Shown piece after piece: positions 9,001-9,498 of a DNA stretch of 64,000 nt. The stretch lies in contig CAXXLV010000001.1 in NCBI GenBank assembly GCA_963664305.2, forward strand, positions 736,001 to 800,000, written 5' to 3'. Position 1 is the stretch's first letter; the number at the start of each line of letters is the position of its first letter. The DNA is from an uncultured Aliarcobacter sp. (lineage in GTDB: Bacteria; Campylobacterota; Campylobacteria; Campylobacterales; Arcobacteraceae). The position numbers were made by a program.

Positions 9001-9498
9001 ATTCAAGTACTTCAGCAAGAGCTTCTTTTTGTAGACTTTCTAATGTTTCTGGTCCCATAGTTTTCTCCTCTTTATGTAAGAGTTAAGTAGCTTACGCTAC
9101 TTTTACTCTGTATAGATTCATGTCATCTAATTTTTTACAAATATCTTTAGTTGAATCACCATCTACGCTTTTTGAAATTTCAGAAATTTGGTATTTATTT
9201 GTGTAATAAATCATTTTGAAATCATCTTTAGGTGCACATTCTGTGTTTGTATAATAATCAACTAATGCTGTGTGTAAAAAAGTACCAGCTGGCACAGAAA
9301 GTTCTTCTAATTTAACACCTTCTCTTGTTTCACTTGTTAAAGTTACAGTTTTCCCTGAAGCATCAATTCCTTCATTAACTTTTTCAATTACTTTGTCAAA
9401 ACTAACATTATTTCCTTCACTCGCTGGGAAGTGGTATCCACATATAAACATGATTTTCTCCTTACTACTATTTTTTATTTATTTTTTTAATTTAATTA

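Follow-up and report, generated by a model that had tools for sequence, protein, structure and literature searches.

Which gene lies between nifH and nifD in the nitrogenase operon of Campylobacterales, and what does its product do for the enzyme? Few operons in biology have been studied as much as nifHDK, which is usually presented as three structural genes lying side by side. A synteny survey writes the cluster of Sulfurospirillum barnesii and Arcobacter nitrofigilis as nifVBHDKT..., a notation that does not register any gene at this place (PMC11773926). In the window, the 64,000-nt stretch of an uncultured Aliarcobacter sp. genome to which all coordinates below refer, we found an open reading frame on the minus strand (9092..9451, start codon ATG) that separates the two genes and encodes an acidic alpha/beta protein of 119 amino acids, here called X. 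Judging from sequence comparisons, X is very probably a helper protein dedicated to the nitrogenase of Campylobacterales. The initial annotation had proposed a lineage-specific nitrogenase protein in this place, and that general reading is strongly supported by the co-occurrence of X with nifD, its fixed position, its decay together with the enzyme in one genome (G296) and the purifying selection acting on it.

On the upstream side of X, nifH (9496..10410, minus strand) encodes the Fe protein (304 aa from MSALRQ), with matches to Pfam Fer4_NifH (E 3e-120) and to solved NifH (E 1e-134). Because the MSALRQ start is conserved in 23 orthologues, we placed the nifH start at 10410 in preference to the ATG further upstream with which the longer reading frame opens. 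On the downstream side, nifD (7601..9058, minus strand; MoFe protein alpha subunit, 485 aa; Pfam Oxidored_nitro, E 1e-97) is followed by nifK (6046..7590, minus strand; beta subunit, 514 aa; Oxidored_nitro and DUF3364 in Pfam, and a PDB alignment). The gaps are 44 nt from nifH to X and 33 nt from X to nifD, and X has its own Shine-Dalgarno sequence, AAGGAGAA (9456..9463, minus strand), 4 nt upstream of its ATG; the reading frame, both gaps and the ribosome-binding site that had been annotated before were all recovered when we read the sequence. A sigma-54-type -24/-12 element, TGGAACACTAGATGCA (10450..10465, minus strand), lies upstream of nifH, and the spacing of its GG and GC agrees with the consensus, TGGCAC-N5-TTGC. 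Just after nifK is an intrinsic-terminator-like hairpin with a 13-bp stem and a T run (6013..6041, minus strand), and no terminator-like site was found in the nifH-X or the X-nifD gap. These three observations together argue for one transcription unit, in which the sigma-54 promoter ahead of nifH would drive transcription of X together with the three structural genes. No run recorded as RNA contains the stretch; four runs in four studies, for which the label RNA-Seq is a guess, gave contigs that cover X at 90-99% identity. With the same proviso about the label, run X6 yielded a single 4203-nt contig equivalent to 6223..10426, comprising nifH, X, nifD and nifK and nothing beyond, and the depth was 0 beyond 10553 in runs X1, X6 and X13. 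This pattern agrees with, and weakly hints at, a transcript start near the sigma-54 element.

X belongs to no family that we could find in the databases. Its best Pfam match (E 0.2) is a chance match, NCBIfam returned 0 families, none of 24 aligned members came up to any Pfam cut-off, and a profile of these 24 sequences found no relative among PDB sequences (best E-value 0.17); the initial annotation's statement that X lies outside Pfam and NCBIfam therefore holds for the aligned members as well. In a set of 5.8 billion proteins, X had 285 relatives at E<=0.001 among 293 candidates, with lengths of 65-209 aa, which is the count obtained previously. Among the 120 matches listed, most are unnamed or 'hypothetical' and one bears a transporter name; the source names of the relatives are Arcobacter, Halarcobacter, Marinarcus, Sulfurimonas, Sulfuricurvum, Sulfurospirillum and Campylobacterales. 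An exhaustive search of 1.84 billion cluster representatives with the X profile gave only 28 matches, 17 of them with E<=1e-10 and the remainder mostly fragments. No genuine fusion of X to another protein was seen among these 28, and P0137 and P0149 look like chimeric or truncated gene calls. GTDB species genomes contain 218 stretches that encode an X relative, and the 80 of the 218 that were listed all bear the label of a Campylobacterota lineage or of unclassified 'bacterium'. X is, as far as these searches reach, a new family restricted to Campylobacterota. Full-text searches of the literature gave no published description of it, although a gene list in a supplementary table could name it. 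Two very long proteins, P0141 (4998 aa, E 1e-10) and P0145 (4593 aa, E 2e-8), were rejected as false positives because their scores are the sum of 10-15 weak copies of G-[FY]-x-x-P-A-S-x-G-N, an SdrD-B-like repeat, worth 3-6 bits each. Proteins with SdrD-B-like repeats are a trap for profile searches with this family.

The distribution of X follows that of nitrogenase. In 401 Campylobacterota genomes, we found X in 50 and nifD, scored as a NifD match at E<=1e-60, in 51; all 50 genomes with X have nifD, and X occurs in none of the 350 genomes that lack nifD. The 50 genomes span nine coded families, with identities of 36-89% to the X of the window, which is single-copy in its genome. By tblastn, the order nifH-X-nifD was collinear on one strand at 50/50 of these loci and at 79 of 80 further loci, the sole exception starting 78 nt before X, at a contig end. 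Gene order had previously been noted in five of five genomes of three families, and the wider survey extends it.

Two genomes depart from this pattern in ways that bear on the role of X. The only nifD genome without X, G008 of the Campylobacterales, carries a high-GC, anaerobe-type cluster (L131, G008:C14:1-14000) that was probably acquired horizontally, with the order nifH (274 aa), nifI1, nifI2, nifD (544 aa), nifK, nifE, nifN and nifB. Its nifI1 and nifI2, PII genes encoding 123 and 125 aa, fill the slot held by X elsewhere. In G296 (L050, G296:C1:1433669-1440019), nifH is frameshifted and nifD and nifK are in pieces, and the X homologue no longer has either a start codon or the TNKYQ motif, the remnant being fused in frame to the nifH tail. 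Its degradation alongside nifH, nifD and nifK indicates that X decays with the enzyme. We also observed that the N-terminal nifH fragment of G296 is the same as an intact NifH from 'unclassified Lebetimonas' over the stretch compared by eye. One Candidatus Marinarcus genome (NZ_CP182357.1) carries two nifH-X-nifD copies about 11.7 kb apart (L071, 802994-808350; L082, 791324-796680), whose X proteins are 83% and 82% identical to that of the window; two nifHDK clusters have also been reported in A. anaerophilus (PMC4584990).

The reading of X as a spurious open reading frame is ruled out by its substitution pattern and its conservation. In 1500 pairs sampled at random from 107 genomes in which nifH, X and nifD are all complete, the median dN/dS of X was 0.14-0.20 in every divergence bin, compared with about 0.06 for nifH and 0.04-0.10 for nifD; X is thus under purifying selection while evolving 2-3 times faster than the genes on either side. 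All of 128 orthologues begin with ATG. Of the columns compared across 97 distinct sequences, 13 are invariant (M1, F2, G5, H7, F8, P9, G13, V21, A62, N85, Y87, Q88 and D97) and a further 14 are conserved in at least 90%. The initial annotation had counted 35 invariant columns in 12 sequences, a figure that is not upheld in the larger sample, where these 13 remain. The invariant residues cluster in the first 14 positions and in a T-N-K-Y-Q motif at the start of a helix, a surface-like pattern. No cysteine is invariant in the 97 sequences (C4, 81%; C72, 37%; C105, 96%), and among sensor features we recognised no PII sequence match, no Fe-S ligand set and no nucleotide-binding motif. The protein is small and acidic (median pI 4.97, median net charge -5), of the alpha/beta type, and has no catalytic or cofactor signature.

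Structure prediction was confident and its comparison with known folds uninformative. An AlphaFold2 model built on a 24-row alignment reached pLDDT 90.6 and pTM 0.85, slightly better than the model reported at first (pLDDT 85, pTM 0.81). It predicts a short N-terminal hairpin, a helix (18-28), two strands (36-41 and 47-53), a helix (58-69), a strand (78-80), two helices (83-96 and 98-108) and a final strand (113-118). Foldseek found no match in the PDB at E<=0.001. The best VIA-align match among 48,161 PDB representatives was the N-terminal domain of a long-form DapD, 2rij (Z 5.5, rmsd 4.7 A over 105 residues), followed by 3r5a (Z 5.1); according to VIA-align's own note, both scores are below the typical best score of models that have no fold relative. 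Foldseek gave E 0.014 and TM 0.43 for the DapD N-terminal domain. The earlier conclusion that X has no informative fold relative, drawn from the same domain at Z 5.8, stands. Homology to this domain (THDPS_N, PF14790) was rejected: when the X profile was compared by hhalign with a profile of 30 Campylobacterales DapD N-domains, the probability was 0.3%, and Pfam gave no match. The ESM Atlas held no usable match, and its own model of X is poor (pTM 0.27).

The position of X has a precedent in NifI1 and NifI2, the PII switch-off proteins of methanogens, clostridia and other anaerobes, which occupy the same slot between nifH and nifD, are of similar size, and bind NifDK until 2-oxoglutarate/ATP makes them let go of it. 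The NifI1,2 proteins of Methanosarcina, encoded between nifH and nifD, have been described to bind NifDK and block NifH docking, with the T-loop of NifI2 contacting a lineage-specific NifD insertion (PMC12439982). X differs from them in being one gene, not two, and in accompanying a group-I (aerobe-type) nitrogenase. Neither X nor any of the 24 aligned members matched PII (PF00543) at E<=1, whereas the same model finds three PII genes elsewhere in the genome, on its other contig. No PII chain was among the Foldseek and VIA matches listed for X, although the absence of a match does not prove that the fold differs. In Azotobacter, Shethna protein II (FeSII) is a 2Fe-2S ferredoxin whose gene lies apart from nif, whereas X lacks a conserved Cys set, has no Fer2 match in Pfam and does not possess the four-Cys ligand set of FeSII. 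CowN is, like X, a small protein, and is reported to bind NifDK and protect it from CO; it is unlinked to nifHDK in the organisms cited there (PMC13474568), and we detected no sequence relation between it and X.

Among the specific roles, the one that we favour, at a little short of an even chance, is that X is a dedicated accessory protein of group-I Mo-nitrogenase that binds the enzyme and acts at the step at which the Fe protein docks onto the MoFe protein. X would bind the nitrogenase proteins themselves, its likely site being where NifH docks onto NifDK, and would hold nitrogenase off, parked or protected until conditions permit turnover. By analogy, it might be a non-PII, cluster-free counterpart of NifI1/NifI2 or of Shethna protein II. 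This reading draws on the co-occurrence with nifD, the fixed gene order, the NifI slot, the co-decay, the selection, the single transcription unit and the weak hint from expression, and likewise on the missing catalytic or cofactor signature, the surface-like pattern of conserved residues, an insertion in NifH described below and the Methanosarcina precedent. The following points count against it. The lack of a recognisable sensor feature in X argues against a switch; the small genes in nifHDK operons elsewhere (nifT, nifY) are not known to be switches; and the tighter spacing of X to nifD would fit a maturation or structural role linked to NifDK equally well.

If X acts at the docking step, we infer that NifH and NifDK are about equally likely to be its partner. 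The comparison of evolutionary distances was uninformative on this point: the correlations were r 0.892 for X and NifH and 0.894 for X and NifD, with partial correlations of 0.507 and 0.516, and with values so nearly equal the mirror-tree test does not tell the partners apart. Gene spacing was more asymmetric, with a median of 96 nt from nifH to X (range 10-311, n=122) and of 32 nt from X to nifD (range 10-323, n=126). The packing of X with nifD mildly favours a stoichiometry at the level of NifDK, or NifDK as the partner.

Pointing the other way, the NifH of the window contains an acidic loop insertion of 12 residues (about residues 85-96; codons at 10123..10158, minus strand), opposite which each of the three printed alignments with solved NifH shows a gap. 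The insertion is absent from all 23 solved NifH, whose aligned spans are 11-15 residues shorter, and from the NifH of G008, the genome without X, whereas 107/107 X-linked NifH carry 8-12 residues at this site. NifHDK has no other large lineage-specific indel: NifD aligns collinearly with the solved group-I proteins and has no large indels, and NifK has small indels only. Among the best 120 database NifH clusters, the 72 with the insertion ranked as a block ahead of 47 without it (one row was unparsed; the exception to the ranking is P0265, a chimeric insertion-free NifH record), in a search that was scored on the insertion region and in which an unrelated insertion there in other phyla would not have ranked. 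The named insertion-bearing clusters among these 120 are Campylobacterota, except for two 'Marichromatium' MAG records. Three records (P0174, P0258 and P0259), on contigs of 9.5 and 6 kb, place X and an insertion-bearing NifH in a MAG filed under the gammaproteobacterial 'Marichromatium sp.'; its X shares a 90% cluster with a Sulfurospirillum protein, so that the record reflects misbinning or recent transfer, and probably the former.

These observations bear on the possibility that X binds the Fe protein NifH itself, at the acidic loop or, imitating as an acidic protein the MoFe docking surface, at the basic cluster face, and thereby parks or protects it. We consider this somewhat unlikely; it is a sub-case of action at the docking step, so that the likelihoods assigned here overlap and do not sum to unity. 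Besides the presence of the insertion in every X-linked NifH and its block-wise ranking, X directly follows nifH, X is acidic, and the initial annotation reported a predicted complex of the two proteins. The co-occurrence of the insertion with X may be taken as circumstantial evidence for NifH as the partner. However, the insertion is acidic too, its median net charge being -4, so that it and X do not pair simply by charge; the gene for X is closer to nifD than to nifH; and X shows a low partial correlation with the insertion region (0.28-0.30), close to the value for NifD (0.35). The correlation of loop and X also lies within one clade, in which related genomes are not independent, and the two may be independent traits of that clade. 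Moreover, our AlphaFold2 model of NifH, built on a 24-row alignment, was poor (mean pLDDT 48.8), which calls for caution over complexes predicted with no NifH alignment, as was that of the initial annotation.

Alternatively, X may help nitrogenase to mature or keep it stable, as a chaperone of apo-NifDK or of NifH while the cluster is being inserted, with a role like that of NifY/NafY, NifW, NifZ or NifM; we rate this as rather unlikely. The tight spacing of X to nifD and its universal retention with this nitrogenase type would fit such a role, as would the organization of Klebsiella-type operons, described as carrying such genes within nifHDKTY (PMC11773926). NifT and NifY resemble X in being small accessory genes co-transcribed with nifHDK (PMC11773926), but they lie downstream of nifK, X matches neither family, and NifT is separately present in this genome, about 2 kb outside the window. 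Searches of Pfam and NCBIfam gave no match of X to the accessory families NifW, NifZ, NifX/NafY, NifT, NifQ or DUF269. The genome has NifW, NifZ, NifX, DUF269, NifQ, NifT and three more Nitro_FeMo-Co proteins, so that no gap is obvious in the known maturation set. Furthermore, the slot upstream of nifD in the structural transcript suggests that X would be made in amounts closer to those of the subunits than assembly factors usually are.

A bolder form of the docking-step reading makes X a non-PII post-translational controller of nitrogenase, or a fourth subunit, that sits on the NifH loop or at the interface between the Fe and MoFe proteins and, depending on the oxygen, energy or nitrogen status, reversibly parks the enzyme. 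We regard this version as improbable. Many Campylobacterales are microaerobes, and if this reading were true, it would explain how a group-I nitrogenase is kept in such organisms without DraT, NifI or the Shethna protein. We found no DraT match in the genome of the window; the DraT model matched in no control genome either.

That the MoFe protein contains X as a further, permanent subunit, in the manner of the delta subunit (VnfG/AnfG) in V- and Fe-only nitrogenases, is very unlikely. The delta subunit is of about 115 aa and has an all-helical fold. Similar in size to X, it is likewise an additional chain encoded within a structural operon, and X is next to nifD. However, the VnfG/AnfG gene lies between D and K, whereas X occupies the nifH-nifD interval of a Mo-type enzyme; the two belong to different families with no sequence match (X has no Pfam match, the delta-subunit family included); and the X model is alpha/beta. 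In addition, NifD and NifK align collinearly with group-I enzymes of solved structure, which are encoded by three genes and do without a further subunit, and the 2-3-fold faster evolution of X relative to NifD is at odds with such a role. Support of nitrogen fixation without binding to nitrogenase, for example through a small molecule or electron supply, is likewise very unlikely: the invariant polar residues H7, N14, N85, Q88, D97 and D109 could line a ligand pocket and a ferredoxin, a flavodoxin and a flavodiiron protein are also encoded in the nif island, but the slot between the structural genes is fixed in 129/130 loci, the exception being at a contig end, and X has no enzyme-like family or fold match.

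As a universally retained fourth gene in the operon, X points to an unstudied requirement or control of group-I nitrogenase, and it bears on the transfer of minimal nif gene sets. The lineage that bears X has been reported to dominate dark nitrogen fixation in sulfidic sediments (PMC11474244).

The operon forms part of a larger nif island in the window. On one side of the island are modE, modA, mop, modB, modC and modD, followed by nifK, nifD, X and nifH. Beyond nifH lie genes for a DUF4010 membrane protein and a PAS histidine kinase and rpoN (13490..14737), and past rpoN those for a 2Fe-2S ferredoxin, nifZ, nifW, a flavodoxin, DUF269, nifX, nifN and nifE, and then for further Nitro_FeMo-Co proteins, a flavodiiron protein, nifB, nifV and nifQ. 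The pattern TGG-N8-TTGC occurs 26 times in the window against 5.3 expected, and several TGGAAY...TTGC sites lie just upstream of nif genes, among them those before nifX (17661..17675), a Nitro_FeMo-Co gene (27939..27953) and nifV (35201..35215). Together these observations suggest a putative sigma-54 nif regulon; the pattern skips the nifH promoter, whose -12 element reads ATGC. In a Sulfurovum isolate, ammonium is reported to inhibit 15N2 fixation fully (PMC13609358).

We noted several further features of the island. The genes nifN (20264..21589) and nifE (25486..26829), both on the minus strand, are split, unusually for nifEN, by an amino-acid permease gene and eutC/eutB (21676..25346), which lie on that strand too. 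Six open reading frames in the island have no Pfam match at E<=1e-4 (15102..15443, 114 aa; 19374..19892, 173 aa; 19897..20271, 125 aa; 34891..35178, 96 aa; 36346..37149, 268 aa; and 37382..37621, 80 aa). Also among the nif genes are those for an ankyrin-repeat protein (18930..19370) and for an LRR protein (37628..38620). Inside the island, a flavodiiron-type protein with ODP/metallo-beta-lactamase and flavodoxin domains (29686..30945, plus strand) is plausibly an O2 scavenger for nitrogenase.
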